64,000 bases of DNA from the NCBI GenBank assembly GCA_002633005.1, contig NMRA01000689.1:124001-188000 (forward strand), given 5' to 3'. The notes below the pieces were generated by a model. The model made no database searches. It was given only the letters and a program-made list of their open reading frames with translations, and was not told the origin of the DNA. The stretch comes from Phoronis australis. Lineage: Eukaryota; Animalia; Phoronida. A program made the translations under genes and the position numbers. Below are positions 1 through 64,000 of this stretch, piece after piece; position 1 is the stretch's first letter, and each line of letters starts with the position of its first letter.

Positions 1-1591
1 AACACGCCTTACTCCGTGCGGAGGTGTAGACTGTTTCAGTGCCAAGTTCAGGATTTATAATTACGGAGCTATTTTGGACTCTCTTTAGTTTTTAGTTGAT
101 CATGTTGTGTTTTGAAAAACAGAAGTGTTATTGACTGTTATATGGAGGTTTTCTCTGTTGTTATGCCAATGAGGTTGATGACTTTCGTGGAGGTGATTAT
201 AAATACTGTTGATTGTTCACCGGAGAGATGAGTCACAGAGTGTAGTGAGCTGGGAGTGTAATGGAGTCCGTGCATATGATTATAACCAGATACTAAATTT
301 TGTGGATATTTGGGCAGGCCTTACCCAACATGCCGCAGTATTTTGTTTTTACAGGTTTTCAGGTATGTTTTCATGAACAGTAATTGTTTCCAATTTTAGT
401 GATAAACCAGCAACTGGTTTACAAATTGGGGATGCATGTTTGTGTGTTTTTTTTTGTTTTTTTTTTGATAATTGGTCATATTTTTTCATTATGTGATTGT
501 TCTGTTGTGATATGTTTCAAACGTTGTGCAGTCATGCATTTCCGGCTTTAGTTGTCTGACAGGCTCTCTTCATTGGTAGCTGGAACCTTGTTAAAGAATT
601 ATTATTCTCCAGTTTGTTAATTACCGTGTAATGAGAATAAACAAAATGGTATGATGTCTGTTTATTTTACCAGGTCACCACGAAGTGTTTTGTTGATTTG
701 CTGGGGTTTTGTTATGAACGAGTTTATGATAAGCGCAGTAATATCTCTTCTCCTCTGTGTTTAATATTTATGTCTAATATTTGCTGATATCCTGTGATGT
801 GTCTGAACTCTTGTCAGTGTCTGAATTCATTGCTGTTGGGAACCATCTAATAGTCAGTATCTGCCCATGAGGTTGCTATCAGTCGGCCATTACTTTATCA
901 GAGTTTGCACTAGGGAGGTTTTCCCCACAGTCTCTCAGTAGTGGTTAGTCTCTTGAAGGGTAGACATAGGATTGAGTAGTCTAACTAATGAGACGATACA
1001 TCAGGCAGCAGGTAAGGTTGTGGATGGACAAACTTGTACAGTACGTCCAGGTTATAATGTCTAGTTTCCTGGTTATAGCCCTCTACTTTGCTTGGACAAT
1101 TTTACCCACTGGTGTACTTGTGCTGAAGTTAGATCATACTGTAAGCATTTCTCAATTGCTATCGCATTTTACCTGCAGCCGTGAAATGTTTGTGCTTTGA
1201 AGGAAACACTGTAGTCAGGTGAATTCTTTCAAATCTAGATTTTGTACCAAAAATGCTTCTTTGAACAAACTAAATGATTGTCTGATCGTAATGGTCATTT
1301 GGGTTTGTGTTCCACATTAGAATTTTTTGGTGGAAGATTTAATGAGTTCGAATTTGTTTCCTTATGGGTCAGCTGATTGAAACACGTGTCAGCACTCTTC
1401 AAGTAGTTTGCATCCTTCCAATCTGCCAATGTGTTTGTAAAAATTTGTCTAAATACTCCTGATCTTTGTGCAGCATCAGAATAGCAGTAACTTCCAAAGA
1501 TGCCTGAATGCTTTTATAGATATCCCTGTCTTGAAGCAGACGTAGTGTCGTTGGTCGCCTCGTTAAGAAACTCTTCCGTTTCTGTTTCCAG

Positions 1592-1801
1592 CTGCCACAA
1601 GAGCTGCAGAATGTACAGACAGTTCTACAACGATCTGACCAGACGCACAAGCGAAACTCACGTGCCAGCGACACGAGCTCTGCTTACTCAGGGTCGGACA
1701 TGATGCAGTCATCTGTCGATGAACAAGACATCGACTTGAGTGGCTTGGTAGAGAGTGTCGTAGACTCGGACGATGAAGAGGGCTACGTTGAGTCCAATGA
1801 C
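1592..1801 (+). CDS. RAPGEF2: PDZ-GEF exon, N-terminal acidic region
   Basis: ttccag|CTG...GAC|gtaagt; LPQELQ...[38 protein letters not shown]. Confidence 0.9.
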
Positions 1802-41700: not shown

Positions 41701-43410
41701 GAATTAATCAGCTACTTATACTCCATTGTATTTTCTAAATTTCAATTTTGCGGAATACAAAGTGCCGCCTATTCTTTGCTTACGTGAATTTAGACATAGT
41801 ATTAGTTTTAGAAAATGTTTCTGCGATTGTTTCAAACACCATGTAGCTGTCTCGTTTTATAAAGCCAACGATAGTCAGATGACAGCACTCCAACATCAAA
41901 TTCACTACAATGCAGACATGCGCACCATCACCCCTGCGCGCTCTTTTCTCAACCCTGTCGTTAAACTGAGTGACCCTATAGGGGCACAGGGACGCAGGCA
42001 ATAAACTGAGCAACGTTTATGTTCGTGGTCGCCATACCTTTCACTAGTTCTTTACTTTTCTTCACAAATCTCGTTCCTGTATTGCTAAGCTTTTAGAATA
42101 TTTTCTCCCGCCAGGCTTTTAATGAAAATTAAAAGCCGTTCGTGTGAAAATGTGTTTGCAATGCAAATCATTAAGAGGTTATGTTGCCTCTCTTCCTGTA
42201 TACCGGATTCTGATGGCCTTTCATTCCTGTACATACATTTGACACGATTCATAGGAGACTTTTCAGATAAAATACTAAATTTCTTAGTCTCTATAATGAA
42301 TACTGGTTCAGTCCGTTCACTACATTTCACCATGTTTTCTTACATGTCGTGATACATAAAAACCCGTCGGATCATTCGCAGTGGTCAATTTCGTCACCTT
42401 TGTGTCGTTACCAAGTTTCGGGTAATCAAAAATGCTTTCATACATAAACAAATTTCAATTACCTCAGCAGTACACGTTTACTTGGGCTTCAAGTTGACGA
42501 TATTTACTTTTCGCGTCATCTTACGTCAACACATCCTCACACCCATATTGGCAAAGCATGACGGAAACATGTTTATATGTCACGGGTGGCAAATAATAGC
42601 AGATACTTTGCCTAAATTATTGCCACCTGACAAACAGCAACAATAAATTAATGAACACAAGAGCTGGGCCACAGTAGTATTATAAACAAAGAACACATTC
42701 GAGATAATGCGTGTAGCTACCAAATAATACATAAACAGTTTGGATGTAATAAAACAAACACGAAACTGCTAATATCACATTTTTACTTTTTTTTTTAAGA
42801 AACTACAACCAGTGTTGCCATTTCCAGCTGCCGCACGTGCTGGGAGTTTATATAAGGCATGTATTCATTTACGTAATCGCCACTGTTCGCGTTTTCCACG
42901 GTAGTTGCGAGAGTTGTTGAAACAGGATATAACGAGATCCGATTGCGTTGATTCGTGACGAAAATTGAAAACTGCTTGTTAGCGGTACCGGATGTTTTAC
43001 TACGTCTACAAGGTTATGGCGAAAAATTTCATACAAACCCACCTGCAATTGTTATATGGTGAAAGCGCAAGCGAGGTGAAATTTCTGCTGAATCCTGTTA
43101 TCTTTATTTTTTGTATAATTTAAAGTTCTCAGCCCACTTTGTTGAGCAGTTTTAACCGCATCATACCAAATATAGTTTGAGAAGAAATACAGTCACGTGT
43201 AGCAGCGCTACCAATTTGACGTATCAATTTCTAAAATATTGATGTTTAAAGTAACCCGTTTAATAATATGTCGTTGTTTTTTCTTTGGTTTCTTTTTGTT
43301 TGTTTATACAAGAACGATCAAACTGTGTTCGCTTGCATGCATGGTACAACCTAGCGCCATTACCATTACTTGCTGAACCAACAGTCTCTGCCATGACTCG
43401 TTTTATTTCG

Positions 43411-43620
43411 AGGAGACATTGTGGCGCAGTGCTCTGAGACCCCGGTTCAAATCCTGGCTTTACTGGCAGACAATCAAGCATTGCACAAAGATGTCTCTTA
43501 CTCCTCTTAGCTTGGTCTTAGTGAACGTATGCAACGGAGTAAATGATAACCTGCGGGATGTAACGCGAAAGCGATTTCTGGGAGTGTGCCCATATTGAGT
43601 ACTAAAGAACTTCTATTATT
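43411..43620 (+). mobile_element. Degenerate tRNA-derived SINE
   Basis: TGGCGCAGTG (A-box) and GGTTCAAATCC (B-box, spacing shortened), tail ending TATTATTT. Confidence 0.45.
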
Positions 43621-44989
43621 TAAAGTTAATTTTATTTTTCACAATTCAAAAGCTAATGACGTTGAAATGAACTGTAACTGTTAAACAGTACGTTAGTTAT
43701 ATCGGCGTTTTTTAAGAATTTAACAAAACAGAAATTTTAAAGCGTTATCCTGATTATATAGCACCATGTTATATACTTCAACTTTGTGCTATTCACCAGA
43801 CAAGATACGGAAATACACTGTCGGTAAAAATCTACCACTGTCCATTTTCTTGTTCATTATCTAATCCACGAAAACCAACATAGCTTCTGAGAGTTTTGCG
43901 TTAGTAAGACAATTCTAATAAACGCTTTGTCTAAACTAATTGGATTTATATCTTATTTGTATTGATTATGGAATGAAGACAGTTGAGCACACGTTGCACG
44001 TTTCATTTATGTAAGGTATTTCTTCCGAGCTGGGGAAACTTTCAGCGAATATGTTCTTTTACGACAAACTGCCCCATAAACGTGTTTTTTGTCAACAGTA
44101 TGGCACGATAGACGTTAACGCCCGCAACAGAATTTGTGGGAGGGGTTTGTGTAGCCTCGCATCATAATTTGTTAGGTCGAGGTGTAACGTTGTTTGTAGA
44201 GGCTCGAGGGTAGTGCTTGGGCATCTATTCTCTTTTGATCCCAACATGTGTTGTCCTCAAAGTCTCTGCTATGGTAAAAAATCTACCGGGCATTTCCGAT
44301 AAAGCACCACGTGCACTTTTTCTTCCTACAGTTTCGGCAATTCCCGGAATATGGTAAGTTTATATCGTATATGCGCAGCCCCTGCGCTTGTGGCGACGCT
44401 GCGCATGCTTATCCGAATTTAGTCTCGGGAGGGCCAAAAATGTTACCCAGTTTGACTGGGCATCCTATTTTTCCGTGGAAAAAGAGCCAGGGAGTATTGG
44501 GCGCCCGCTGCAAGATCGATGTGCGACATGTTGCGGCAACGCCACAGGGTCTGTGCCATTTTGTGCCACTGTGTACAGTACGATAAATATGTCGTCGACG
44601 TTGTTGTGTCAGAGGAATGTCTTGTTGTAAACTTACACCATGACGTGCTATCGTCATCGCACCAATATAATTTGTGATTGCTTACGTCAACTAAGTGGTT
44701 TAATGTGAATTCATTCTAATGTGAAAAGGAAGGGCAGTGTCATTTTCGACATCAACACAGGCACTAGAAACGATTTATTCGTTCTAAGCTCTTAGATTAC
44801 GTGTAGTTATTCTCTCTGTCGCCAATGGTGTTTGTCTTAATGGAGTTTTCGGTGAAGTTTCGCGTCACTTTAATGCATTAGACGCTCCAGTTATTAGCGC
44901 CATTGACTGGGATGGTCTATAACTGTCGTTAGACAACGTTAGGCTCAAGAAATGCTATTGTTTCATTTTTAGTCTTAACGCTGTTTGTT

Positions 44990-45295
44990 AAGGTGGCTAA
45001 AAGCGGAAATCGAATTCAACCGCTTACTGTCATAAAATCGGTCTTTGAGTCCTTTTCTTGACATGATTCTATTTTATTGGCCAAGAAGAAAACATCGAAA
45101 CCATCAGCGGCTCAAAAAGCTTCAGAGTTTTTTGAATTGCCCAACCATTAAATTTTGGTTCGAAAATGGCGCACGTACGCATTGCCTGTCATTCAGCAAA
45201 TATTCAAGATTGGATTTACGTGGTCGTGTTTTTAAACCCCACAGCGTTTGCGTAAGAATTGAACATTGACAATCAAGCAGGAGAGAAATGCAACT
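44990..45295. mobile_element. TTAA-type MITE, family copy 2 (left end eroded)
   Basis: Ends GAAATGCAACT|TTAA; shares CGAAAATGGCGCA..GCATTGCCTGT and TGTTTTTAAACCCCA with the 28-kb copy. Confidence 0.6.
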
Positions 45296-47820
45296 TTAAG
45301 TTAACACACATTACGTAACAAAACAGGTGACTTGCGGGTACGCGGCAGACAATGTGTGCTCTGAAAAAACAACAGAGAATTAGGAAGCGAATGGCAGGGG
45401 CATGTCGTCTGCTCCTGAATAGCGTACACGGTAGAGCACGTGCGAGCATGCGCGGGATAAACAGGTGATAAGTAGAACAGCAATGGAGGTGATCATGAGG
45501 CCGGGTGACAGCTACGGGTAAGGGCGAATCGCGAAATTTGTATGACAACGGGTTATTAGTATTGAAAAATATTTACCAATATGTTCATGAAATGCCCATT
45601 TTGTCAATTTTCCTCCCATTGTCTGCGAAGTATAGCCTACCAACAGTAGTACAAAAAGAACACGTAAAACGGCAATAAACGCACACATGTAACAATGATT
45701 CTGGAATTCCTTCATGAAATTGGTGAGCCACTGGGCACTACGAAAGTGTCAAAACCATTAAAAAAATTGGATTTGTACCTTAATCAGATTTGTGAATTGT
45801 TCAGTTAATGATACAAACATGCCATTTACAAAAACATTTTTGCAAAAAATATGACTAGTCATAAAAAATCTAATATGGCGACCAGTTTTTTAAGATCGCC
45901 GATAGTGGATAGGAAAACAACTACTAACCACAAAAACAATCGATTTCTTACAACTTGGGCAAAAGTTATTAGTTTTTAACATCTTCAGCTGATTTATTAC
46001 ATCACAAATCTTAGGGCCAATAATTGCATAAATTCTTTACACTGAACAAAAAATTCACCCGATGGCTTAATGAATCAATTTCATGCTTACGCGATCTTGA
46101 GATCAAGCAAAATTTCAAGTTCAAGCACAACAAAAGTACCGGAAGGTGCACTTATAGGAGTGCCGAAATAAAAAAAAAAACGTACCGTAAGTTTGCAGTA
46201 AAATTGTCTCATGACACCATTACAGAGATCGTAAGAACTCTAGGGCCATCGCACGCCAGCACAACACTTGGTTTTTCTGAAAAATGCTTCAAGCTGTTCG
46301 TGCAAATATAACGGCGTCCGTATGTCTGAACTTCGTATGTAAGCCGCAAAACATTCTACTCCGTCTGCGAAGGTCTGCGATCGTCGGTATTCCGAGAATA
46401 AAGGGGTTTCATACGAACCTATCGTTCGTAAGAAACTTTTTACCGTAGCCTTTTCTCTCCGTTTGCTCGTGATTACATCAGCTGATGGTGCATCAATAGT
46501 CAACTTGTCGGACTAATCACAGTATGAATATGTACCCTTTCGGTGAATAGTGCGAGACGTGCACGAAACAAATATTTTATCGGAATATTCCGACAACGAG
46601 AATAAAGATGAAGAACACAGACCAGATTGATGGCGTTCAGATTAATGTGCTGTTGGCTAATCCGCTATCGGAGAGCACTGCCTCCCGTTCAGTAACGCTA
46701 GGACCTCGCTAAAAAAACAAGACTTCGCGAGATTACGTGATAAATTGCCGTGTATTTTAAATGAGAACACATGACTCTGACTAGGTTTTATCTAGGTCCT
46801 AGCGTAGATCCTAGCGTCCACTAAACACACGCCTGCTCTACTGTCAACCCCCACTAGCTAATTCATTATCGGTTTCCGGAGATCACGTGACAAAAGTCCC
46901 GCGCGCTTGGAGATGTGATAATTACATTATAATCAGAGTTCAACGTTGACTATAATGTAATCCTAAATTCTTTAAGTAACAAACTCGAACATTTTCTGAC
47001 GTCACAGTGACATCATGGTCATTCAACTGTAATCTTAATAATACATTTTTCAGTGACTGTAAAGCGGATTATGCTCCTTTAATTGTGACGTCTTTGTTGC
47101 TCTATTTAATATACATGGACTCATTACTCAGGAGATGTGTTAGTGTACATCGCATTGCTACATGCTTTCTCACAGTAAAATTCATATTCTTGTAATTCTC
47201 AAATACTGAAACAAAGACAAAACAAAAACATAAATGTTTTGTGTTAATAAAAGGTCCCCTTCAATACTTGGAATATCCACTGTTTTGTGTTCATTGTATT
47301 ATAGTTGCTCTTTGCTGCTACATCAAGGACTATGAACTATGGTGGCTGGGAATGTCAATTTGTTCAAGGTGTAAAGTTCGATATATTGTTTATAGTTTAA
47401 TGCAAGACGTGGATCAAAGTCTTTTCATGTAATACTTTGCATGTAATTGTATCATTTCTGAAAACAGTAGAAAGAAACCTTTTTTCGCTGGAGAATCGTC
47501 ATTGGTCGAGGGTCTTTAAACAGGAACCCCACATGACCACTGTGAGAAAATGAGCTTCTTCATTGTCGTTATTTGAGAAGAGGAACTCACAGATTTAGAA
47601 TTCTCATAGAACAAACTGTCACAATAGCCCCAATATGGTATACCGTTGGCCCATGCCTTTGCACATGCCCGGAGGAGGGCACGTGGTAAGTTGTACGTGG
47701 ACTCGTTGTACATCTATTGTATCAACATTACGATCATTTCCTCAGCAAATGGTAGCATTGAACAGTGGTGCAAATCGATGAAAAACACAGTGCAGAAGCT
47801 AAAGTTGTCCGACTCGTATA

Positions 47821-47960
47821 CAGAGGCGGATTTAGGAAGCGACCGTTCCCTCCCCCCTCCTACTACAGAAACGACCGAAAAAAGCACTCGCCATGCCGAC
47901 TTTAGGGCCTTTTCTGTTGTTGCCGCTCCCTCTCCCTTACGACATATTAGATCCGCGAGT
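47821..47960. mobile_element. Short GGCGGAT-TIR MITE
   Basis: CAGAGGCGGATTTAGG ... TAGATCCGCGAGTG. Confidence 0.55.
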
Positions 47961-48378
47961 GCGCGCATGAGAAATCATTGATCTAGGTAACATTGTTAGT
48001 TCCGTTATATGAACAATTCCACGGATTAATTTAGAAGTGATCAGTTGACATGGCACACTGTTATTTGAGTCACAGGTACGGGTTGTCTTTTGGCGCAACC
48101 TTTCGTCTCTGTGGAGCGTATTGCTACTGTTCATGAGTGAACGTAAACAAATCTCCGATTGGTCAATCAACTCAGGAGACTATAATTTTTCCGCGAATCA
48201 AAATCCAACCGCCTTGTCAGTAAGTATTTACGCACAAATGTGAGCGAACGTTCTCATAATCTCAGATGATCTTGTGAAAAGCACAAGCAAGATCTGCGAA
48301 AATTTAATTGTAGACGTACATCACCATTTCGAGTTTGTTGTTCAATAAACAACAGTATTAGCGTTGACCAAGGCAAGA

Positions 48379-48649
48379 ATGCTTGTGGCAATTGTTGAGA
48401 TCTTGCTTCTTGCAAGTTTGCAAGTTGCTAAATCAAGGACAATTCACGCTTCTTCTGGAAGTAAGAGTTCGACAGAAAAACCGACCTATCTGAGTCAAGC
48501 CATTGCTAAATATGTTGAAACTGCTAACGCAAAAGACCATGCGAATTCTGTGCTTCCCGAGAGCGAAACAGTTATAACGCGAGGCGGACGAGCCATTTCA
48601 GATGACGTGTTTACAAACATAGAAGTACCTCGCAGGATGTATCGAAAAG
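48379..48649 (+). CDS. Probable first exon of EGFR-like L-domain gene: signal peptide plus pro-like segment
   Basis: [19 protein letters not shown]... open for 90 codons to AAG|gtaagt; phase 1 joins 59828 to give ...RRMYRK-E-CNGT. The link spans an 11-kb intron and is inferred. Confidence 0.65.
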
Positions 48650-51600
48650 GTAAGTTGATGGTGCCAATAGATTTTTTCGGTGAAAATTGAGTACAAGAAG
48701 TTGCGTAAAAAAGCAGTCACCTCTCATGTGAGTAAAAAACCACCTGAAACCAGTTTTACAGCGGTAGGTTTACTAAATCACAAGTTAGCTTCTTGAGCGG
48801 AACGCGCAGGTTTATAGCCGATTTAAGGCCAACAGAAAGCAAGGTCTNCGCGTGTAATAATTAGCCTGGATTTCTTAGTCTGTCGAAGTCTCATCATTGA
48901 AAAAGCATTGGAATGACGATACGCCAAATCGATTTGTACTTTTGATTTGATTTGTATATTGTCTGTGGTACTAAATGCCGTTTGTTCATGGGAAATGAAT
49001 TTACGTATGCATGTCGTGGTTTGAAACTATAGACGTAACGGTGTGAAACTAATGGACAGCGAAATACTCCAGCAGACTTGAAAATTGAGGTTGTCCAGTC
49101 AAACAGAGGCGCAGGGTCCAGTCGTGCACTAAACGACCAAAAAATGACATCACCTGGTGATCATATTCCATACTCTGATCGTTTTGACCTTGGCTGCAAC
49201 AGTCAGTGTGTCTACCGGACTAGTCTACCAGTTGTTTTCTCATTTCGGGGCACTGTAGAGCTGGGTATACTCTAACAACCATGCTTAAATTAAATTTTGT
49301 TTAAATGCGACCTTAAGCACTTATTGTGAATTATCGCTTGGAACTGTTTTGCTCTGACAAGCGTGTCAACGGTAATTGATAAAATTTGTTAGTACTCTAA
49401 ACCGAAATGATTTTTAAAAACCTTTAAAATTGATCCTAAATTGGTACTTTGTTCAGAATTTGTGGATTTGAATGTAACCAAATTTTGTTAAAAACACGAT
49501 TTTGACCTATATCGTCTGGAAGGCTTGCAGCTCGTGTGTTAAACTGGTACAGAACGACAAAACACTGTAACGCGCAACAAAACGGAGAGTCTTTTCAAGA
49601 GTCGCTCACGTCATAAAATGACGCGTCATACTTTCCACAATTTGCACTGAACATGATAACTAACCTCTCACGAGCACTTGCATGACCCAATCAGAGCCGA
49701 ATGTTCGAAAGAAGAATTTTTGTCGCTCATCGAACAAGAGGACCTTTGGACCACGGGCGGTCCTCCGCACTCTGGAACCACCAATCTTTCGACACTGGAC
49801 CGCTGACATACGCTTACCACTTGGATATGTATCAGTGTTCGTTACCACGTGACTGGCACACTTAGCGCAGACCATAGGCGTTACCAATAATTGCGGTTAG
49901 CCACATTTTTTCCCGCTTGTTTTAATTAGCTGACGTGCAGCTCGGCTAATTTAGTACGTTTTACTTCACCACCGCTAAAACTAAGGCGTCGTCCGCCTAT
50001 TTATATACTTCTCTGTGCAGCTTTGCTTTTATAAGAATAGATGTTAGTAGTAATTTCACTGTTGTGACTTCTGTAAAGGGAAAACTCTGGGCAAGAAAAG
50101 TAATTTTACAGAAATCAGCAGTAGCGCGAGCTCGAACGCTCTTCCGCTGAGTCAAATCCCAGGCATTAAATAACAGAGTGTTTCAAACGTATTTAAGAAC
50201 GGTAAAGACACAGGCCTTGATTTCAGCGAATGTCTGGCAGACGACAGTAAAAACTGACCATTTGTATTAAATCATAATAATACAACGGGTTTTGTTTCAT
50301 AGCTCTGCTTAAAGCTAATAACTTCAACAAGTCTTTTCCAATCAACAGTAATCTCAAAATTGCGTTTTTCGCCCGCAAAAACGATAACATCCCTTTAACG
50401 ACCTCTATTGTGGTAATGAATACTGAGACTTTCACAATAAATAATTCGTTATTTGTTTAACAAATTGTGTATTCGCAGTAGTTTGGAACAGGGAATCAGT
50501 TAAATAATAACGACCCAATACCCCTTTTGACGAGCAGTGGGCATTGACACGACATAGGTCGATAACGATGCTGATTTCAACGAAAACGTACGAGTAGTTA
50601 GAAATATGCTGCAGACGCGTGAACTTTTTTGATTTACGATTTGCTTTCGCAATAATTATTCACAGTATCAATGACGTCATCATATAATAGATTTCGGTTT
50701 AAACAATGATAACCGATGTAATATATGAACACAAATATTTACTTGATGGTATTAAGTTAAATTGTAGAAAACACTTACGTCAAACAATATTCACTTAGGT
50801 TTAAATGCTTAGTACCATGGGCCGATTTACTTCGACAAATTTCATGATAAAAGTTACGCACCTCGCTGTCGCGTGTGTGCATGACTGGATTCGTGTTTTC
50901 TTAAGCAAATAAGAGCTTGGAGCGGTTTTAATCAGCCAACAAATTAGGGCAGCGTTAAAGTTCAATAACTGTGTATGGCTTTGTTTTTTGTTTAAATTAA
51001 CACCACAGTCTATTTCCTAGGTCATTGGCACTCAAAGTTCTTTTCAAAACGGTTCCAAATTATTCATCACCGTCACGCAATCGAATGCGTACACTGTGTT
51101 CATTGCATCACAATTTTTGTAAGCTAGGTCAAAACTTCGGAAACATTGATTCTAAAAAGTCGCCCAATGCAATAACCGTTAATACCACCTGTCTTGTGGG
51201 TCGGCTGTTGGCTATCAAACGACCAAGTTTCTTGGACTTGGTTCTGTGAGTTACATAAGGATCAGTTGTAAGTATTTCCCGTCATAACGCGTTCAGGGTT
51301 CACAATTGCTGTGTTTATGTGTATTATGTTTTCCATGCAAAAAGGGCCACCTGGTGGAATCCTGTAAACTATCTCAGATCAGGAAATATGACCACGTTAG
51401 ATACTAACTGTAGATAAAGAGATAGATGGACGGACGGTTGGATGGATGGATGGATGGATAGATGGATGGATGGATGGATGGATGGATGGATGGATGGATG
51501 GATGGATGGATGGAGTGGATGAATGGATGGGCTACAGGCAGACAGACAGGCAGGCAGGCAGGCAGGCAGACAGACGGACGAACAGTTAGGCAGACAGACA

Positions 51601-54600
51601 GACTGACAGTCAGGCAGAAAATGCCAATAAGACTTTTAAAAGACTTCGAAGCCTCTTGCACGAAATCCACCTAGTTTATCTAGTTTAAACAAAATAACCT
51701 ATTTAGGCCTAAGTAGTTAACGTGTCGGACGAGTGCAGTCGTTAGTACTTTAGTGAGTAATAATAGAGTTACAGAAAAACTGACAACTGAACTATGAAGA
51801 CAACATACAGAGAGATAAAGACTAAGATAAACAGAAAGAGTCCTGTCATCTAGGTCATTGAACTATTACAATATTTTGAGAAAACAATTAGAAAGAGAGG
51901 TTAATCGCTGAGATACCCGATACAGCAACTGCGTCAGCTAAAAATAAAACCCTGGCCAATCCGAGTGTTCTCCCATAAGTGGGTGCGTAGGAGCGTGCTG
52001 AACTCGGGTGGACCGTATTTTGCGCTCTCAGGCACAATCGTCCAGGGTGGGTATCTTGGTTTGGTGGTGTTGCTCGTGGTATTGTTTCGTGTAAATATGC
52101 GGAGGGTCGGCAAAAGTAGTATTTTGTCTCGGGCAGGGTTTGCCGTCCCTCGCATGGAGTGGTCTCGGGTACTCATCTCCCTGATAGTGCATGGTCCATG
52201 CATTGCATTGGCGAGCATTTTGATTGTGTCGCGGTACCCCATACCCATTATGCGGAAGGAAACGCCCTCTCACAAACAGCTAGTGCTTTGGTTGGATCCA
52301 TGAATCTGAGAGGGGAAGCTTGTGGCAATTTATGACGGAAGTGATAAAATCCACGAACGCAGCTGTTGCGTGCGCCATCAAAATCACAAGCTAAACGATT
52401 GGCTACATGCACCATTGTGGCGAAATAAATTGGGCGGCGTACTTTTATCTCACTTTCTGCATAGAGAGGCTCCTGGGACTAAACGATAAGAAGTTTGTTT
52501 TGTAGCGCCACCTATGGCAGTTTCACCAACGCTTTCGCCTTGTCGGCAAGTCAAATATCTAATTATGTAAAAGTATCAAATGTGCATTCTAAGCAAAAAA
52601 GGTATAAACAAAATGGCAAAATCTTATTCCGTGACATCTAAAAACATAGTATGCAAAAGTTTCGTATGAATCTCATCGCTATTTATTACATATGGCATTC
52701 GTAAGTTAGTAAAATTGAGGTATTTTTCTAGGGACCTACATAGCTATAACAATGTGTTCTGCAAAAACATGAAAATTCCAGATTTCGGTAAACGTTCTCA
52801 CGTATGATTTCCAAAATATTATCACAGTGCGGTGGGTGTCTGTTGCTAGGTGTTACCGGAAGCTGCCTTACCAGCTGAGCCAGTTCCTGCCTTATAAAAC
52901 CTACATAAGAGAATGTAATAGCGAGACAAATTGCACAAATGCGGTTAAAAATCTGGCACAATTTTTAGGTAGTACGCAATTATGAGCAAACGACAACTAG
53001 CTTCGATATTAAAACCAGCTGTGGCGCTCTTTGACGGAAGCAGGAATGTGCCTTCGTCGATTGCAAAGTCATAAATCATGTCGTGCATGAAACATTCATT
53101 TTGGAAAATAGCGAACTGAAATGCCGCCTGGTAGTTGAATTGCAGGTATTTCTAGAAATCAAAAAACTTTAAAAACGTGTTGAAAGGGATTCGAAATCGA
53201 AAAATCATTCATGATGTTCAGTAGGCTTAATCTTGCAATAACATTTTGGAAAGCATTATTGGGTACAATAGGATCTTATTAATACGTTTCGGCTAAATCT
53301 TTTGGCCTATGTGAGGAATTCACACAGTGAAACTCAGTAAATATTTTGAACTTAACTTTACCAGCGTATGTTTTCAATAGCCTGATTGTAATTAGAATCC
53401 ATAGTTGCCCGTAACAGCGTTCGTCAGTTCGACATATGATAGCGAACAAAAGTTCTTGATGCCGACGAAAACCAAATTTTTTTTAATTGCGCAACTTCTA
53501 TCTTTTTGCTTCAGCTTATATATTACGTGTCTATTTTTTATTTATTTATTTATTTTGTTTATAGTGGCATGGACGGATCAATATGTATTGGAATGCAAAT
53601 GGACTTGATAACTGTCGTCGTCATTAAAACTATTTTCATACATACTGTCAGTTACTTATTTCATAAGAGACCTGATAGTTTGATGATTAGTGAGTTCAAG
53701 GTTTCATTACCTGCGTCATTTGCGTAATTAGCAGCTGTATTGATACAGGAATGTGATCTTTCGTATGGCATTGAAACTCTTCTCGTTGGCAAAAACAAGA
53801 ACCACCGTCAAATCCTTGTCACCATCACTATTGCTGCCCACCGTTACCATTAGTGCCTAGTACAACGAGTGCTGCAACATCACACTACCAGTGCGGCCAT
53901 CACCACATCTATCACCCCTGCCACTACCGTCGCTATTAACCCCATCGCTAAAAGTCAGTGGCGGTTAACACTATCATTAATCCCATCCCAGTGGCGGATC
54001 CAGGATTTTGTGTTGGGGGGGCAGGGCAGAGTATTGGCCAGAATTTTGCCCTTCAGACATTCTCACCCCCGAACTGCCAAATGGAATCTGGGAGAATTTT
54101 AGGGGAGCCATGTCTCCCTTGGCTCCCCTCTAAATCCGCCCATTACATGGGCAGCGCAGCGCTGAAAAAAGTGGTTGCTATAGCCCCCTCAGCCCCCCTG
54201 TGGTGCACCGCCCATAGACCGTGGACGACGCAGCACTCAAAAAAGTGGGGCTATAGCTCCCTCACCAACCCCCTATGGTGTGCCGCCCATGTCATTAGGA
54301 CACTAAAAGAATGCAACATCCGCCATTTTCATTATCGTCGTCACTTCTTCTACCATTTCCCATCCCAACCACTACTCATTCACCCAACTGTTATGGATCT
54401 GCCACTTTCACCACCACCACCACCAGCACGACCAACATCACTACTCACTGCACAACCACTATCACCATCAACAGCTGCCACCATCAACACCACCGCTCAT
54501 CACCGCAACCAGCACCACTTCCGCCGTTACAAAATCCACTACATCATTAGTTTTCACCAATTCATCTACACGAATCACCACCGCTACACATAGCCTTTTC

Positions 54601-57600
54601 CGACACGTGCACCGCCTTCAACGTTATATCGTGAGAACATCTCTTGTGCTCGCAGCTCCACTTTCAAGACGACTGGGCCTTAGGTCCAACAGTTGTTTAT
54701 TTTCATAAAAGGTCTCACTATCAAATAGCGATTAAAACAGCACGTTGTACATGTGTATTTTCACGAGTTTTGCTTTTCTTGTCAAAAGCAAACGTGTTTT
54801 CGTTATGTCGCTTTGGGAAATCTTCCCCAGTGGTTACCCCGAGGCACGATATCATTAAAGATCAGCACTCGCGGGAAGTCTGTAGACTTGAAGCATCATA
54901 ACAAACGTGATGTCTTTTTTGAAAAACCTTGCCCTCCTACCTTTGAGATAATCGCTCAGCGTGATGCGTTTGATCTTATATTCCTTGCTGATAAAAGTAA
55001 AACAAACTTTAGGCTGTTTTTTCAACAAAACCAGCTCTTGCTGTAGGTTCTCTTGCGGTTTGGAACTATTGATTCACACTGGATATTTAGTTGAAGAAAC
55101 GTGTCCGGGCCAGCACTGTCAGTCATTTGAGTTTCCAAACAGAACCATATTTCTTTTAAAGAACGCTTTTTAAAGATTTTACAGCGCAAGGTGGAGGTCG
55201 CAAAAACACTTGTTGGGCAATTAGCATTGCATTCATTGTGGTGAAACGCAGCCGCCAATCTTTCTGCCTGCTCTCGGTTCGACCTGAAAAGTGAAATGTT
55301 GTAAAAGGTACACGAACGCGGCAAATTTCAGGAACCTTTTGATCACAATGATTGAATCCTGTAATATTTTCAAAGCCACTCAAAGCTTTGGCGCATCGTC
55401 AAACAGTTGTAGAAATAAACCCCCCACTTCGAAGTCTCTATGATGGGAGGTCTAAAACTGCATTTCTTAGAGGAAACCGATCTGCTATCATGAGAGGGAA
55501 ATATTTGATAGGCGTTGGTTTTAAAGTTGCATTTCGCCCTGATTATGTAGCTTAAAACGAAAGTCGTCTTTCACTCTGGAAATTTGGTCTCATAATGTTC
55601 TTTACCCTGATAGGATGTTATTTCCATTACCAGCAAGACGATCGGAATCATCTGATCTGCGACTTGAGAAAAGGCTTCAGAGTGTACTGGCGTTGGCTAA
55701 CCCTTGAGTCGCCAGATCATTAGACAATAATTCAGCATCAGATGAGCGTGGTAATGTTTTTAAACCCCAAAGCGCTTTGGTTAACATTGACAGATAAACA
55801 GGAACGAAATGCAGCTTTAATAGTTGTTCTACACGTCTACGTGGCTGTTGCATATGAATGAATTCCGACAACACTGGCCAGCAATTAGACATGAAATAAA
55901 ATTGTCTCTAGTTTCTTCGATTCTGTTATTAGTGGGTGGAACGGAGGGAATGAGAATATAACGTCAAAACGATTTCTGGGCTCTATCATACTTATGAGTC
56001 CTCGTATTTGTAGTGCGGATGTTACTCACAAGTACTGCGATGTGTGATTTCGGGTGCATAGGGAGTGCAACTTAAAATTAAAGCCTTCGTTTCTACATGA
56101 GCCAGCCGCCAATCACTGAACTAATAAACAAACACGAATCACTTAGTGCTACACTTTTGCTGAATATCTCGAATTTCTAGTTGATGCAAGCAGTGCAGCC
56201 ATTGGTTCACAATTTGAAAAGAAATCATCATTACAAATTGCCTTGCGTGACGTTCGTGATTTGTATTTGTAATTCTTATATTGCGTTGATTGTTGTCAAC
56301 GGAGGAGCCAAATGATGGAGGTTGGATTATTACCTTGTATTAATACATTGTCATGGAAACTAAGGATCAAACTTTTATCATTTGCCGGTGCAGGTGAAGG
56401 TGAGGAGGTAGTAAAATCTAATTACGTAGGTGGATGCAAAAAATAGCAGATCTGTCAACTGACTCGTGACACAGTGAAATCGACAACCCGACTCTGTGGC
56501 GTCTGCATCAATGTTGACACGCGTGGCGCATTTTAAATAAGCCTTCGTGTTTGCATTTGAGTTAGGAGTATTAACTGGTCTGCGCGCTGATCGCAAAAAA
56601 TGATCGGATGTTGTCGCAATGGAGGGGTTCACTGGCTGGTATCCAAATGGGCTGGTACATAGTCTCACAAACCTAGAAAAAGTACATCGGGACACATCGA
56701 CATTAATACTTTTGGGAAGTGAGAGTACAAATACGTCCCCAAAGTCCGTAGTGTGCAAAAAAACATGAGCAAGGTTCTCACGCCTTTGGAAAAATAAGGG
56801 GGTGTCACTAAATCAAGTGTCGTGCGTATAGTCTCAGGGGCGGATCCAGGATTTTAAGTTGGGGGGGACAGGGCAGAGTGTTAGCCAGCATTTTGCCCCT
56901 CAGACATTCGCACCGCCCCAAAGCCGGTGCCAAATGGAATATGGAAGAATTAAACCCGCCACTGAGTTTCACGTCTGAAATGATGGTAACTTACGAGTCT
57001 TACACGCTTGACACAAATGGAAAGTTTTAGAGCAGGTTCTATCCAATGCGCACCTGTACGGGCTCATTCGACATGCGCACATTCTGTGAATGAGAAACAA
57101 ATCAAGGCGCTGAATGTCTGGGCTGCTTTCAGGAGACACAAGACACTCGCCAAGCATTTGCGCAAAGGAATCTTCACTCATGTGAGGTCTGTCCAAACAC
57201 TTCAATATACCGACATCTCTGACCAATCACTAAAATGGCCTCTAGTTTGCTATGCTAGGTCAGGGTCAGTGAGGTTCTGAGCATTTACACTATTTACTGC
57301 TACGAAAGATAGAGCTACACTTTCATATAGGTGGCGCTGTGACAGAGAAAAATCCTTACATTGAACCATGCTTCATTTACTTCGTAAGCCAACACTATCG
57401 CGTTATCATTCTTAGATACATCCACGAGTAACCAGATCATGGGCGACGTAAAACTGAAAAAAGTGGGGGCTATAGCTCCCCCACCCCCAGCCCCCTATGG
57501 TGCGCAGCCTGCGAAAAAGCATGACATTATCTTTCAATGTCGGGCATCAAAGCAATGACAAGCGCCTGTCTGTGCTTTTGATAACTTCCGTAGCTTCCAT

Positions 57601-60600
57601 TCTTCGTAAATTATCCCGTTGTCGAACAATTTTGAGAGACCAAATCACGAAATGTCACCGATTTTCCACGACTGACATGTTTGGTGAGCCGGCTCGTGAA
57701 TGCCGGTCTCGCCACCTAGTGACTGCATAAGATTTGATCCAGCCTTTGTTTGATTACGCCGGGCTGCGAAGTGACGTAACCAGTCCTGATATGGCCTCGT
57801 TCCGGCCCCAGGCTCCAGCTCGCAGCCAGCCGCTCGTGTAAGCCGAAAAAAAACAGTCAAATTCCCCCATTGTATACTTCCTTATTTGGAAAGTCACGTG
57901 AGTTGACTAGCCTGGTGGGTGTCGTTGCTTTAAAAAGGCTATAGAGAATACAAAGAACATCGTTTGCTTGTTATTTTGTTTTTGTTCTATACATAATGAA
58001 TTGTGCTAGGCATCCCATAAGCAGTGTAATACAAAGACAAGTGTACAGCCTGTAGGACAAGTTTTGTCTATTTACAACGATCTGACACCAACGCAGGTAG
58101 CGTAAACGGAAAGTGAGCTTATGGTGGTGCTGCCATTCCCCGTGTGGACACCAACGTGCAATTAAACTAGCAAAATACAATTTGGGATGATGGAAACTAT
58201 CTGTGCTCGTGTTGGGAGCCCCACATTATACATATGCCTTGCTTCATCCAAAGATAGAGATGTTCAAGACCCCATGATTGTTGCCTACATCAAACGATTA
58301 ACCTCGAGCATGCGCAATAAATGGCGTCTACACCAAAAACCCTGGGTGGAATGAAGTTAACAATTGCAGCCTCNTTTTTGTTCTATACATAATGAATTGT
58401 GCTAGGCATCCCATAAGCAGTATAATACAAAGACAAGTGTACAGCCTGTAGGACAAGTTTTGTCTATTTACAACGTTCTGACACCAACGCAGGTAGCGTA
58501 AACGGAAAGTGAGCTTATGATGGTGCTGCCATTCCGCGTGTGGACACCAACGTGCAATTAAACTAGCAAAATACAATTTGGGATGATGGAAACTATCTGT
58601 GCTCGTGTTGGGAGCCCCACATTATACATATGCCTTGCTTCATCCAAAGATAGAGATGTTCAAGACCCCATGATTGTTGCCTACATCAAACGATTAACCT
58701 CGAGCATGCGCAATAAATGGCGTCTACACCAAAAACCCTGGGTGGAATGAAGTTAACAATTGCAGCCTCCGTCTTTGTCAATTTACACGCGCACTGTGAA
58801 GACACGTGTGTGAGGTTCCGTATTCATTGCAAAGTTACTCGATTTCATTTTTATGACCAACATGAACCTGAATAGATTGAAGCCTTCTAGTTTCATATGT
58901 ATACTCATGAAACACTGCATTGCGTCATCTTGCTTTTTGGTGAGTTTCTTGCGTCCACGGAACGTACCCCCAGTGGGTGCCAGTCTTCTCGTGCCTTTAT
59001 TGCATTATTCACTTTATTCATCGCTAGTGCTCAATGTCGTTTCATTTTGTCACCAACACTGAGAGCGGAATTTTAAGGATGGTTTACGGAGTGCGAAATG
59101 AAGTTTAAAAAGGGCGAAATACGTGGGAAGTAAAGTTCAATTTTATTCGTTAAAATTGGATTACGCTTCGTGAAACAGGAGTAGCAGGGCATTTATGAAA
59201 CTACATTGAAAAACACGAGAAAACTACAGTTAAAGAAACAAGCGTTAACCTGGCGAGTTAAATTACTAACGTGTGCGTTGTATTGTTTTTAAGTTGGCCT
59301 ACCCAAATGCAATTACAGAAGTCCACCGCACTTTGGTAAACCCACTTTGGTTTCGATACTTCTGTGGGTTCAATTATTTCCTTGACACTGGGAAGAGCAG
59401 TGATGAGGCGTTTGAACTATAAAAATGCGGACAACCATAGCATTTCAAAAATGAAGAGAAATTTGAACTGAATTGTGGAACTTTTTATACGATGGCCGCA
59501 TTGGTTTCGGCGCCTTAGAGCAATCATTGTAAGGTTGGGGTTTTGTCCGGAGCAGCGTTTGTTGGTAATGCCCGTATAGAAATATAACAAATGGCATTTT
59601 TAGAAATAGCTCATGTTTAATAAAAAAAATACACAGGGTCATTAAAGTTTGTCTACATTGCGTCAAAACAGAGCCAACGAGGTAGAGTGATGGTAAAAAT
59701 ACAAATAATTCTTATTCAGTTACTGTTACTTTTATTATCAATATCACTGTCAATTGTTGCCGAGTCTCGGTTGGCACTTCCTTGGGATTTCAACCTCAAA
59801 TTGATTATCTTCGGTTTTTGTCTTCAGAATGCAATGGGACAAACACAAAGCTCAATACCCGAACATCAGACGTCAGACGGCGCTATAGGTTCTACCGAAA
59901 ACGCTACGCCGGATGTGAAATCGTTCACGGGAATTTGGAGCTTGTCTTTCTGCACAACACTAACATGAACTACGACATGAGCTTCTTAAAGGACATTCGA
60001 GAAGTTACTGGATACATTCTTATCGCTGTTGTGTTCGCCAAAACTATTCCGTTGACTAGCTTGGAAGTGGTCCGGGGCGAGACGTTGTTTAGGGGCAGCA
60101 GTCTGTACGTTGTGCTTACCTACAGCTCCTTGCAGGACGTCGTTGGCCTTTGGGAGTTGCAGATGCCGTCGCTTGTCGGTGAGTTTCTGTGACATCATTT
60201 AATGAACGTATTTCAAAAGAATATAACTTTCCGTGTCATTAGTACACGGTTGTTCAATAAACGTTGTCATTGATATATTCTATTTTGGTATGGCCTCAAT
60301 CTAAATCACTTTCATGTTTTATAACAAATAAAACAGAGGAGAAGGTCGAGTAATAGAACTACAACTGTTTATTGCATTTTTCTTCGAGATTCAATTAATA
60401 GTCAAAACTGTGTCTCTGGAGAGATTAATTCATAAATTTAAAGTGATTTTCGCACATGGGTTTTGTAGAAAAAATGGTATTAGTTCGATGTTACACATTG
60501 TCAGCATTGAGCCTCTAAGTCACAATTTTTTGCCCCTTGTCTAACACTTCGGTAATGTGGTAAAGTTTACATGAGAAGGTGTAAGGTGGACTTGAAACCG

Positions 60601-62192
60601 TTCAAAAGTCTATGAAAATGCATCACTGCAGCTGACAAAGTCAGGGACAACGTATTCGGTTAGACCATTTCCACTTGCTATCATTCCTCCGATTTCATAC
60701 TTTTTTACAGAAATAAGCCGTGGTGACGTGGTGTTCCGGAGGAACAACTATCTGTGTTTTATGGACACTATTGTTTGGGGTACAATCATGAAACAACCCG
60801 ACTCGAGACTGTATCGGCGACGGAACCGAGTAGGAATCGTGCGTCAATGTAAGATACATTTTATTGCACTACATTTGCCTTGTCAAGCGCCCAATTTTAC
60901 CAATTTTTATTGAACTTTTTACAGACAGACGAAAATCATGGGTGCTTATTGCGAAGCAGAGTTTATGCCACGGTAGGGCTACGAAGTGAGACAATTATTT
61001 TAATTGGTTACTTTTTACCGAGTTCCGCTCTAGCGAACATCCGGCAAAGGCACTTTCGAGAGACAAATTATAGAATATTGTTTTTCAACAACACCACTTT
61101 GCTTTGCAGTGTTAAAGTTTGTGCAACAAAATTATGCAAAAACGATCTGATGGTAGAATTAAGATACCGTTTTGGCGAGGTGCACAGGATGATACAACCG
61201 TAATTATTTATTTGATTGGTTTTAAGTGATTATGTGTGTCGGTTGCAAGAATGTAATAGGGAAAATTAATCTTAATTGTTTTATTTTTTGGGCAAAATTT
61301 CTCTCACCAAATTACAGATGATTCAAGGTCACTGCCATTTCGAAGAAATTGCTTTCGTGGAACTATTTCATACTGAGTGACACAGCTGCTTTCATCTTCA
61401 TACTCAAAGCATTGCTTTTACGCTATGATTTATTAGTATAGCACAGTAAATATTTTCAACGAGAATTTTCAGAGCCACTCGCATGTCGCGTTTTTTCACG
61501 AAGAAAACGTGATATTTCTCGAATATATCGTAATGGATAGAGGATGTGATGTGTTTCACCTAACATACATGTATGTCCAACGGCAAATCGAACGTGTTTT
61601 AATTAGCGACGGAATCACATGTTTTCATTTACCAATGCATTTTTGGCATTTTTCACCTTACTTTAATATGTCTGATCTGACACATTATGTCTCATTGTAT
61701 CAATTTCAACCCCTTAATTCCAATTTTGGCCCATTTTGTCTATTTGCACTAGGCAGGTCCATTTCATCCTTAAATCCATTTCCACTCGTTGTGTAGGTTT
61801 TATCCGTTAGAATAATTGTATTTCAAAAAGGGGTATTAAAACGGTTATTAATTCCGTTTCGATAAATTATGCTGAATTCAATGGAAGTAATGGGTCAAAA
61901 CATGGGCGGCGCAGCACTGAAAAAAGTGGGGGGCTAAAGACCCCTCAGCCCATGCAAATTGAGTTACGAAATTTGGTGAGTTACTGTGTTCTATTCAAGC
62001 TCTTGAATTCTCCTTCACAGGCAGCCATAAAAAGAAGTCTAACCTACCGTTGACCTTCCCAGCCATTAGACACATGGTAATTCATGAAGTTTTCTATTTT
62101 TAGGTGGGTCATGCGCTTACAAATGCCACGATCATTGCTGGGGTGAAGGCGACAACATGTGCCAGGCCAACCCCTACTTCTACAGCTATTAG
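48379..62192 (+). CDS. Secreted EGFR/ErbB-like single receptor-L-domain protein (no TM, no kinase), 4 exons, ~282 aa
   Basis: Exons 48379-48649, 59828-60178, 60711-60848, 62104-62192; three phase-1 GT-AG introns, 849 nt ending in TAG. EGFR domain I motifs [60 protein letters not shown], then C..C...C...CWG.G...CQ. Confidence 0.78.
51410..51618. repeat. Compound microsatellite (GATG)n-(GACA/GGCA)n
   Basis: Direct reading. Confidence 0.95.
53989..54144. mobile_element. GGCGGATCC-TIR MITE (homologous to 56835-56964)
   Basis: CAGTGGCGGATCCAGGATTTT...GGGCAGAGT.TT.GCCAG.ATTTTGCCC.TCAGACATTC...TAAATCCGCCC. Confidence 0.75.
54146..54291. mobile_element. Two tandem ~70-bp CATGGGCG...CGCCCATG mini-elements
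   Basis: CATGGGC.GCGCAGC.CTGAAAAAAGTGG..CTATAGC...TGGTG..CCGCCCAT; further copies at 57438-57511 and 61901-61954. Confidence 0.7.
54320..54590. repeat. (CAC/CAT)-rich low-complexity tract
   Basis: CACCACCAC/CATCAC runs (also 53815-53950). Confidence 0.7.
55525..55816. mobile_element. TTAA-type MITE, family copy 3 (complete, 292 bp)
   Basis: TTAA|AGTTGCATTTCG ... CGAAATGCAGCT|TTAA: 12-bp TIR (11/12) and TTAA target duplication. Confidence 0.8.
56835..56964. mobile_element. GGCGGATCC-TIR MITE
   Basis: CAGGGGCGGATCCAGG ... TAAACCCGCCACTG; internal match to the 53989 copy. Confidence 0.75.
57438..57511. mobile_element. CATGGGCG mini-element copy
   Basis: CATGGGCGACG..CTGAAAAAGTGGGGGCTATAGC...TATGGTGCGC. 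Confidence 0.6.
57979..58769. repeat. ~395-bp tandem duplication centred on a single N
   Basis: 57979-58373 vs 58375-58769, few substitutions. Confidence 0.92.
59828..60178 (+). CDS. EGFR-like receptor L domain exon
   Basis: CNGTNTKL...[16 protein letters not shown]...[19 protein letters not shown]...[10 protein letters not shown]...[10 protein letters not shown]. Confidence 0.93.
60711..60848 (+). CDS. EGFR-like L domain exon (C-terminal part)
   Basis: ttacag|[27 protein letters not shown]...|gtaaga. Confidence 0.92.
61901..61954. mobile_element. CATGGGCG mini-element copy (internally deleted)
   Basis: CATGGGCGGCGCAGCACTGAAAAAAGTGGGGGGCTA...GCCCATG. Confidence 0.6.
62104..62192 (+). CDS. 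EGFR-like terminal exon: first furin-like Cys module then stop
   Basis: ttttag|[32 protein letters not shown]. Confidence 0.85.
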
Positions 62193-62911
62193 ATTACGGA
62201 GAGATGGTTCAAATCGCATACCAGCCTCTGCTACAACCTTGATTCGCCATGTGTCATGAACATATTGCATAACGGTACAGATCTGTCGGACATTTTCTGA
62301 CTCAATGCATGTTGCCCACCTGTAACATAACTTGAAAAAAATACATGTTCAATTGCCATGCCAGCTTACGATGCCACGACATGTTGCCGATGGCTGGCCA
62401 CTGTACAGACACACGGAAGTGTGGCGGATGACACGAAACTGAAGACCGTGAACGTACGTTAATAGCAACACGGTGGCTGAACATTACGAACAAATTGTCT
62501 TTTCACAAAGAGAAAAGTTTTAGTTGTAAAAGTTTACTATTGGTCTATGGGTGACGTAGAGTTTTGAGGCTTTTTCCGAAAACACACATAAGTACACTTG
62601 TATTTGTGCGCACATGCACAAGCGTGCATGCATTGCTTAGCCGGCTAGTCTTATGTTTAGATAGTGTGATTAATTAAAAACGTGTCCGCCCTTGTCTGTA
62701 TTCTGCAAGTCGGTTCCCGCTTAGAAATTATTTGGGAATACATACGGCTTGCATAGTAGACTCTAAACATTTACGCAGAATATGCAAAAATAATAAGTAA
62801 TATGTATATTTCCAGACACAATCATATAGTTTTACGTTGGGTTTTATAATGTGTATTTATTTTTGTGAAGTAATATATTTTGAAATCTCTATGGTGTAAA
62901 TGGAAGTTTGG

Positions 62912-62917
62912 AATAAA
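62912..62917 (+). terminator. Putative polyadenylation signal of the EGFR-like gene
   Basis: AATAAA ~720 nt after the TAG, followed by a GT/T-rich tract (ttttgtttcctgtgtctttgtc). Confidence 0.5.
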
Positions 62918-64000
62918 GCTACATATTTTGTTTCCTGTGTCTTTGTCTTTTCAGAGAAGCGGTAAACAATTCATTGGGCTTTTATTTTAAAACCGATTAT
63001 TGTGTTTTAGAAACTATTGAACTGGAAACAAAATTTTAAAAACGTTTATCATTTGATAAACAACGAGCAATCATCTTGTAGAGGCGTAATCTTGCAAAAA
63101 GTCAATCAAAAACTATAATTATATTGACCAAAACTGTTCGCCCAAAGGCACTGTTTCTGAGCATGAACCAAAGACCTAATTTTGTTTGAGTGCAACGCAA
63201 AAACACCATTTTTTCTCATAACCCATGTATTATGTTTTAGTCTGCATTAATAGTTGGATTTTGCGTGTTGACTAAGAACAGGTTCATGCCGTGATAGCTG
63301 TTGTTATTGCTAATTGCACTATTTTGGTGGAGGCGTTTATTTCCAAATTGCCTGTTTTCCAATCTTCAATTTTCGGCAAACACTTCCGCATTCCCTAGAC
63401 GTTGTTAAACTCGGATTGGATGATTGCCATGCCTGTCGTGTCAGCCTACAATACTGGCACGTAATAGCGCCTTCTCATTGGCCGGAATGTATGCTTGATG
63501 ATCTTTACCTAGTTGTCATGCGCCCAGAAGCAGTGGTCTCAGTTGCGCGATGAAATTTGAAAGGTCGTATATGACTATACCGCACCCCTGTAACAAAAAT
63601 GTTATGTAGAACGAATCGAGTTTTCCCGCCTTAAAAAGTTTTCTCGCATCCCATCGGCATTAGTCATTATAAAGTTTGGCGAACTACTCGAAAACGAGGC
63701 CATTCGGTCATAATTTTAGCATACTAAGCTATTGTCTCCCATTTCTCTCATTTCTGTATTTTACAGACCAATGTTTATTCGTTTTGATTGAGGCCAGAAC
63801 AGAAGCACGAACTTTAAAATTGGCCCGTAAGTAAATAACGACATATCTATCCACCGTTTCGGTTTATTACTCTAAAACATTCTCATTACCTCAATAGAAA
63901 CATTGGTTCATTTGAGCTCCAACTGTTGTGATTTCTGGTCTTTTTCCCCTCACAATGCATTTGACGTGTACCTGTACAGTCTCCTCTTTACCTGTGTCGC

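Follow-up and report, generated by a model that had tools for sequence, protein, structure and literature searches.

The DNA analyzed here, a 64,000-nt stretch of contig NMRA01000689.1 of the phoronid Phoronis australis (hereafter the window), contains on its plus strand a small gene related to the receptor for epidermal growth factor (EGFR), between positions 48379 and 62192. The gene is transcribed, and its main message ends after receptor domain I and a single Cys module. No dimerization arm, domain III, membrane anchor or kinase is encoded in the observed message. The gene is real and expressed; it has probably been maintained, and it probably is a dedicated gene for a kinase-less EGFR paralog. 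Its features are listed below.

48379 to 48649, plus strand: candidate first coding exon with a signal-like N-terminus and an extension (DNA only: ATG, open frame and GTAAGT donor)
49871 to 49895, plus strand: 3′ end of an unpredicted exon joined directly to exon 2 (loose end in RNA run X2, 3 reads)
59828 to 60178, plus strand: exon 2, EGFR domain I (L1) without its C-terminal quarter (Pfam PF01030, EGFR 1mox, RNA)
60711 to 60848, plus strand: exon 3, end of domain I, a basic linker and the first base of the first module Cys (profile E 3e-7, RNA joints)
62104 to 62192, plus strand: coding part of exon 4, first Cys module of domain II, an 8-residue tail and the stop (profile E 4e-4, RNA joint)
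62193 to 62935, plus strand: 3′ untranslated region (UTR), end approximate (stranded RNA depth in runs X1 to X3)
62912 to 62917, plus strand: AATAAA, likely polyadenylation signal (sequence, and RNA depth ending there)

When the four exons 48379–48649, 59828–60178, 60711–60848 and 62104–62192 are joined, they form a frame of 849 nt that encodes 282 amino acids (aa) and a stop. All three introns have GT and AG borders and lie in phase 1, at positions that we take to match introns of vertebrate EGFR. The predicted product contains 8 Cys, and the stop codon comes 8 residues after the first Cys module of domain II. Upstream of the exon 1 ATG there is an in-frame stop, and the ATG is followed by 90 open codons and the GTAAGT donor. 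Beyond the N-terminus of the product no 19-residue window has a hydrophobicity above 1.6. A DNA scan found no GT between the last Cys-Gln of exon 4 and the stop; the GTs within this exon are at 62104, 62108, 62143 and 62159. A G/T-rich tract lies behind the AATAAA at 62912. An earlier, sequence-only reading of this stretch had described an intact frame with 8 Cys, three phase-1 introns and a stop after the first module, no GT after CWG....CQ so that the frame runs on to the stop, and a downstream AATAAA; all of these were found in the DNA.

The relationship to EGFR is carried by exons 2 to 4. Exon 2 matched Recep_L_domain (PF01030) in a Pfam scan with E 1e-13 and residues 7–115 of human EGFR (1mox) with E 7e-20, and its best named long match was an EGFR-like protein of Haliotis rufescens at 50% identity. 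An EGFR-family profile of 1222 positions, built from 22 long proteins, was searched against 4222 six-frame fragments of the window. Three fragments reached E<0.001, and these were exons 2, 3 and 4, which together match profile positions 24–207; the next best fragment had E 1.6. By this six-frame search the 64-kb window holds no further EGFR exons. Domain III, a transmembrane helix and a tyrosine kinase are absent from both the window and the observed message, and the message lacks a full furin-like domain II with its dimerization arm, only module 1 being kept. No Pfam match was obtained for exon 4, nor for exon 1 at the cutoff. The earlier assignment to an EGFR-type domain I with the first Cys module is thus borne out by the Pfam, human EGFR and profile matches. 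The nearest named relatives are spiralian, with weak tree support.

RNA was taken from three raw-read runs (X1, X2 and X3, of the same species label and one study) and a contig run (X4), over 59.7–64 kb and 59.7–61.9 kb, that is, downstream of exon 1. Exonic reads had the first mate on the minus strand, which fits a plus-strand message, and the joints were GT..AG. The joint 60178>60711 was crossed by 2, 2 and 6 reads in X1, X2 and X3, respectively, and the joint 60848>62104 by 11, 0 and 13, where the depth just upstream, at 60827, was 12, 2 and 15. When exon 4 was omitted from the stretch, the exon 3 overhangs of 9 reads in X1 and 12 in X3 led to the exon 4 start with agreement 1 and 0.99; since all 21 listed reads continue as exon 4, no alternative partner is seen among them. 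Beyond the stop, the depth in successive bins over 62148–62867 was 5.0, 4.9, 3.5, 0.9 and 1.6 in X1, 2.0, 0.01, 1.0, 0.7 and 0.4 in X2, and 8.3, 15.9, 13.3, 3.7 and 5.6 in X3. In the bin 62868–63011 it was 0.4, in X3 only, and over 63012–63443 it was zero in all four runs. An end of RNA depth at about 62.9 kb fits the AATAAA at 62912 and agrees with a transcript end predicted near 62.93 kb, although no poly(A)-bearing reads were among those listed. Over the coding exons the depth of X4 was zero. Onward splicing to other EGFR exons or a lack of transcription would have spoken against the sequence-only reading; transcription was found in three runs, and onward splicing was not seen among the listed joints.

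Both its polymorphism and a distantly related protein, whose likeness to EGFR ends where that of the window protein does, favor a maintained gene. In the complete table for exons 2 and 3, all three single-nucleotide polymorphisms (SNPs) in coding sequence are synonymous (chance 0.012–0.023), and when one exon 4 SNP among those listed is added the count is four of four (chance 0.002–0.006). The relative came from an exhaustive protein search with exon 2, which gave 418 representatives, the best 150 of them listed. This protein, P0018, is an unnamed protein of 333 aa with one member, from a contig of 1815 nt. It has a signal-like start, about 30 residues, domain I, one Cys module and then 96 unrelated residues; in both this protein and the window protein the homology to EGFR breaks off at the same Cys-Gln. 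Its Pfam content is Recep_L_domain only, and its Atlas clusters are generic L-domain only. When the spliced core was compared by BLAST with 155 proteins, P0018 ranked first (162 bits, 44% over 183 aa). It has 19 rare residues in common with the window protein, compared with 10 or fewer for 32 other proteins. In a 42-row tree, with rows that we picked from the 155 proteins, it is the sister of the window protein (98/83, starred).

Two other proteins that end after the first module, P0156 and P0158 (ENA, 271 and 281 aa), were rejected as orthologs; they lie elsewhere in the tree and resemble donor read-through. Many matches of 100–220 aa resemble individual genomic exons translated as far as the following stop, and these were not counted as short proteins. 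Read-through genomic fragments among the EGFR-like matches stop at places corresponding to exon ends.

A fold model was made for P0018 as a proxy of the window protein, using a 58-row alignment. The model was confident over residues 51–240 (block means mostly >90, lowest 69), with a disordered tail, and its top structural match was a crystallized HER2 1–192 fragment (3h3b; 193 residues, E 4e-14). This match suggests that domain I with one module can fold alone. The window core is the most basic of 20 aligned cores, with an isoelectric point (pI) of 9.2 and a net charge of +8, the next being +4; the P0018 core has +2. According to the available part of PMC4319926, high-affinity ligand binding needs domains I and III, and the dissociation constant cited there for HER3 domains I–II is 68 nM, versus 2.3 nM for the whole ectodomain. 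Since domain III is missing from the window product, a single ligand site would be left. On the basis of this one site, the weaker binding of HER3 domains I–II and the basic core, we propose that the dedicated kinase-less EGFR paralog yields a secreted, matrix-held, low-affinity buffer of EGF-type ligands, a proposal that we regard as having an even chance of being right.

In such a scheme the 5′ part of an EGFR gene would have been duplicated and the donor after the first module lost, with the old intron now read as tail and UTR. The copy would be old and held by purifying selection. Its product, secreted by way of the signal-like exon at 48379, would fold autonomously and bind an EGF-type ligand weakly at one site, thereby buffering or localizing it. 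The basic surface (net +8) may hold the product on matrix or cell-surface glycans, which would make its action local. It would be unable to dimerize through the arm or to signal.

It is also possible, though unlikely, that the gene encodes a dedicated secreted protein that traps no ligand and instead acts on the full receptor ectodomain, a mode suggested for herstatin or HPA-1/2, or serves as a basic matrix- or glycan-binding protein. The need for both domains I and III in high-affinity binding (PMC4319926, seen in part) favors this explanation, as do the pI and net charge of the core, the highest of those aligned. The N-terminal ligand-contact strand has diverged from EGFR, which speaks for it as well and counts against ligand buffering. 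The available text of PMC3227454 likewise leaves open that HPA-1/2 antagonize receptor or ligand. However, the product has no dimerization arm with which to contact the receptor, and with P0018 at only +2 the charge is not common to the pair.

Other observations, given in this and the next three paragraphs, weigh against the gene being maintained, secreted and confined to a short message. The lead of P0018 is small, since the second-best match, a full-length Haliotis EGFR, scored 155 bits. In a 25-row tree, its rows picked from the same 155 proteins, the pair with the window protein is retained at 92/73 and the star is lost. P0018 is a single sequence, on a long branch (1.6 and 2.1), and as it is known from the protein alone, its tail may be a retained intron. 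Three more searches gave no further orthologs: two with a word index brought back P0018 and nothing else (1 of 7996 and 1 of 196 candidates), this index being insensitive, with just 2 EGFRs found for exon 2, and a metagenome scan gave 76 pattern matches with none confirmed.

The 5′ end of the gene is the second concern. Ahead of exon 2 a single loose end was listed, supported in run X2 by 3 reads with agreement 1; its only matching place in the window is 49871–49894, and a GT donor follows 49895. In the frame of exon 2 the sequence of the exon ending at 49895 contains a stop, 14 codons upstream, which is not followed by any ATG. This exon could be an in-frame micro-exon of 30 nt that begins at 49866, or else an alternative first exon that is non-coding. 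The micro-exon would keep the frame after exon 1 (292 aa, 9 Cys); its putative acceptor is weak, with 4 T in 18 versus 10–11 for the true acceptors. Exon 1 itself begins with a hydrophobicity of 3.09, the highest of 11 phase-1 ATG-to-donor candidates in 38.7–59.8 kb, and none of 11 minus-strand controls reaches 2.4. Judged by hydrophobicity alone, the candidate signal has an acid residue inside its hydrophobic core. The GC content at third codon positions (GC3) of exon 1 is 0.33, versus 0.48–0.72 in 12 neighboring segments, and its codon score is under those of all 15 reference exons and is matched by 8% of random frames. There is also another in-frame phase-1 donor, behind 48460; its use would leave a signal-only exon of 27 codons without the extension. 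Exon 1 showed no match to the P0018 extension past the junction residues. The sequence-only reading had proposed a signal peptide and an extension of about 70 aa. The open frame and the hydrophobic start are present in the DNA, but in place of a joint between exons 1 and 2 the sole 5′ partner seen was the 49895 exon. Because of this different partner, the atypical codons of exon 1 and the second donor, secretion and the 70-aa extension are plausible, as judged from the sequence, and no more than that. Should the long form of exon 1 be the one in use, a multibasic stretch at 48631–48649, just before the first domain I Cys, may serve as a convertase site.

If the 5′ end is non-coding, the finding reduces to a transcribed partial duplicate. 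The locus would then be poorly translated or decaying, with the 49895 exon as its main 5′ exon and a leaderless product starting inside domain I. We consider this distinctly unlikely. It would account for the 49895 exon as the sole listed partner of exon 2 and for the CCAAT and TGACG motifs at 49609–49785. For a message that begins at 49700, short out-of-frame reading frames start at each of the first four ATGs, and the first in-frame ATG lies within domain I (146 aa). The near-background codon use of exon 1 and the low expression also fit. On the other hand, the frame is intact over three exons with 8 of 8 Cys kept, the GC3 of exons 2–4 (0.53–0.71) is like that of the neighboring genes, the listed SNPs are synonymous only, and a relative at 44% identity shares the end point. 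Moreover, 3 reads of one run cannot show which 5′ exon is dominant, and the micro-exon, if used, would retain the signal.

The third concern is the RNA. Expression is low: out of 11–13 million records, 19, 10 and 38 reads fell on exons 2–3. A single study supplied the three runs, and in X1 the depth falls from 12 at 62111 to 3–5 after the stop. Over 59.7–64 kb there are at least 162 further loose ends and at least 5 further joints beyond those listed (a transcribed repeat). Because of the low expression, the X1 drop and the partial set of joints, a minor onward splice may exist. The least probable explanation is that the locus is the 5′ part of a conventional, longer gene of the EGFR family whose other exons lie beyond 64 kb, the short message being an intronic-polyadenylation isoform: the window ends 1.1 kb past the AATAAA while intron 1 is about 10–11 kb, soluble HER3 forms arise through intron read-through (PMC13107152 and PMC5462353, both seen in part), and the three samples of one study and the X1 drop leave room for it, but there is no GT donor at the homologous site or up to the stop, the 21 listed exon 3 overhang reads have no alternative partner, the UTR depth in X3 equals its exon depth, and the window protein groups with a truncated protein rather than with full receptors.

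The sequence-only reading had treated the gene as stand-alone; it is less isolated than that implied, since kinase-less short EGFR-like proteins have been deposited for several molluscs. All of these, like the octopod ones below, are predicted gene models, and our searches found no function for them. Proteins of 269–333 aa were among the listed matches from Lymnaea (CAL1535380.1), Ostrea (XP_048775764.1), Lottia (XP_009047530.1), Liolophura (XP_064614336.1) and Gigantopelta (XP_041373552.1). A partial Furin-like match was present in 4 of these 5 (4 of 6 short mollusc proteins scanned) and a kinase match in none of the 5. Three short mollusc proteins stop at a corresponding point near the dimerization arm. 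An ectodomain-only EGFR-like protein of 642 aa recurs in four octopod records. Like the predicted window product, the short mollusc proteins have a signal-like start and one EGFR-type L domain (two in octopods) without a kinase; they differ in that most retain further modules of domain II, several in number. A starred clade unites them (98/89 and 99/97), with the window protein outside it in both trees and adjacent to it in one (79/78); an origin in common with the window protein is thus neither established nor dismissed. In the 25-row tree all short and ectodomain-only forms fall on one side (94/91), and the 17 rows on the other side are for the most part full receptors. As minor features, the Gigantopelta protein has a hydrophobic C-terminal stretch and the octopod protein a basic tail at its end. 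Our handles P0041, P0054, P0066, P0070, P0122 and P0025 denote short or ectodomain-only mollusc EGFR-like proteins.

Tentatively, the window gene may be the smallest in an ancient and so far unnoticed set of spiralian EGFR paralogs that stand alone and are secreted. The lengths in such a set might be graded, again a doubtful suggestion, from the whole ectodomain in octopods, through domain I and domain II as far as the arm, the form seen in snails, bivalves and a chiton, to domain I and one module in the window protein and P0018. If true, this set would be a receptor-derived extracellular layer that tunes EGF ligands and was overlooked because surveys required a kinase domain. The main survey of EGFRs in animals, which describes expansions and inactive kinases in spiralians, took into account only kinase-bearing sequences (PMC4914847), and stand-alone kinase-less EGFR genes would therefore have been missed by design.

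Compared with the EGFR/ErbB kinases, the window product is alike in domain I (50% identity over exon 2), in the Cys pattern and in the first domain II module. It differs in size, about 280 aa versus 1200–1500 aa, its message being without the rest of domain II, domains III–IV, the transmembrane helix and the kinase. The soluble isoforms ErbB3-S/p23, p45 sErbB3 and herstatin are N-terminal ectodomain fragments made by intron read-through with their own polyadenylation site, and p45 sErbB3 inhibits heregulin signaling (PMC13107152 and PMC5462353, in the portions available). The window product is likewise an N-terminal ectodomain fragment ended by intron-like read-through. However, the gene behind each of those isoforms also makes the full receptor and retains the donor, the isoform being an alternative product, whereas the window DNA is without this donor and only the short form was seen; a cut after module 1 is found in none of the soluble ErbB forms listed.

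Drosophila SDR is a separate gene for a secreted decoy of InR, with ligand binding shown (PMC7357564, seen in part). Both messages lack a kinase and a transmembrane segment, and for both an extracellular ligand buffer is proposed. SDR is an insulin receptor decoy with demonstrated binding, while the window gene is EGFR-derived, has one L domain and is only predicted to bind. The IRLDs of Caenorhabditis elegans, including HPA-1 and HPA-2, are also kinase-less L-domain proteins, two of which genetically antagonize EGF signaling (PMC9262388 and PMC3227454, from the accessible text). By description their receptor homology is weak, whereas the window protein is 40–50% identical to EGFR domain I. 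Unlike them, the window gene presumably keeps the exon structure of EGFR. In the literature searched, which left most subscription papers outside its coverage, no published stand-alone secreted EGFR paralog was found in invertebrates. A separate-gene insulin receptor decoy and soluble ErbB isoforms are known. A dedicated EGFR-derived gene reduced to one ligand-binding domain, if retained over a long distance, would offer a natural experiment on the ability of domain I by itself to regulate EGF ligands.

The remainder of the window contains two multi-exon genes on the plus strand. The gene at 1500–17100 has PDZ and RasGEF pieces (Pfam) and is, from this domain set, presumably RAPGEF2/6-like. 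The pieces scanned of the gene at 24600–38720 gave no Pfam match; we take it to be sialate O-acetylesterase-like. Tandem duplications of 395–700 bases and 96.6–99.8% identity, each split by a single N, occur at 11122–12268, 25123–26518, 36019–36869 and 57979–58769. These four are likely unmerged haplotype overlaps of the assembly and not real duplications.

A short dispersed repeat at 61896–61951, 54145–54287 and 57434–57509 has abundant RNA on both strands with many head-to-tail joints, and a repeat at 63730–64000 has both-strand RNA depth with fold-back joints. Intron 1 contains a second dispersed repeat, at 53986–54098 and 56832–56951. A 4-base microsatellite lies at 51420–51530, and at 19527–19937 there is a tandem array whose unit is about 24 bases long. 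The observed/expected ratio of CpG is about 0.9–1.1 over 40000–54000 versus 0.4–0.8 over 1–22 kb, a contrast that suggests gene-body methylation of the first gene and little methylation around the 5′ end of the EGFR-like gene.

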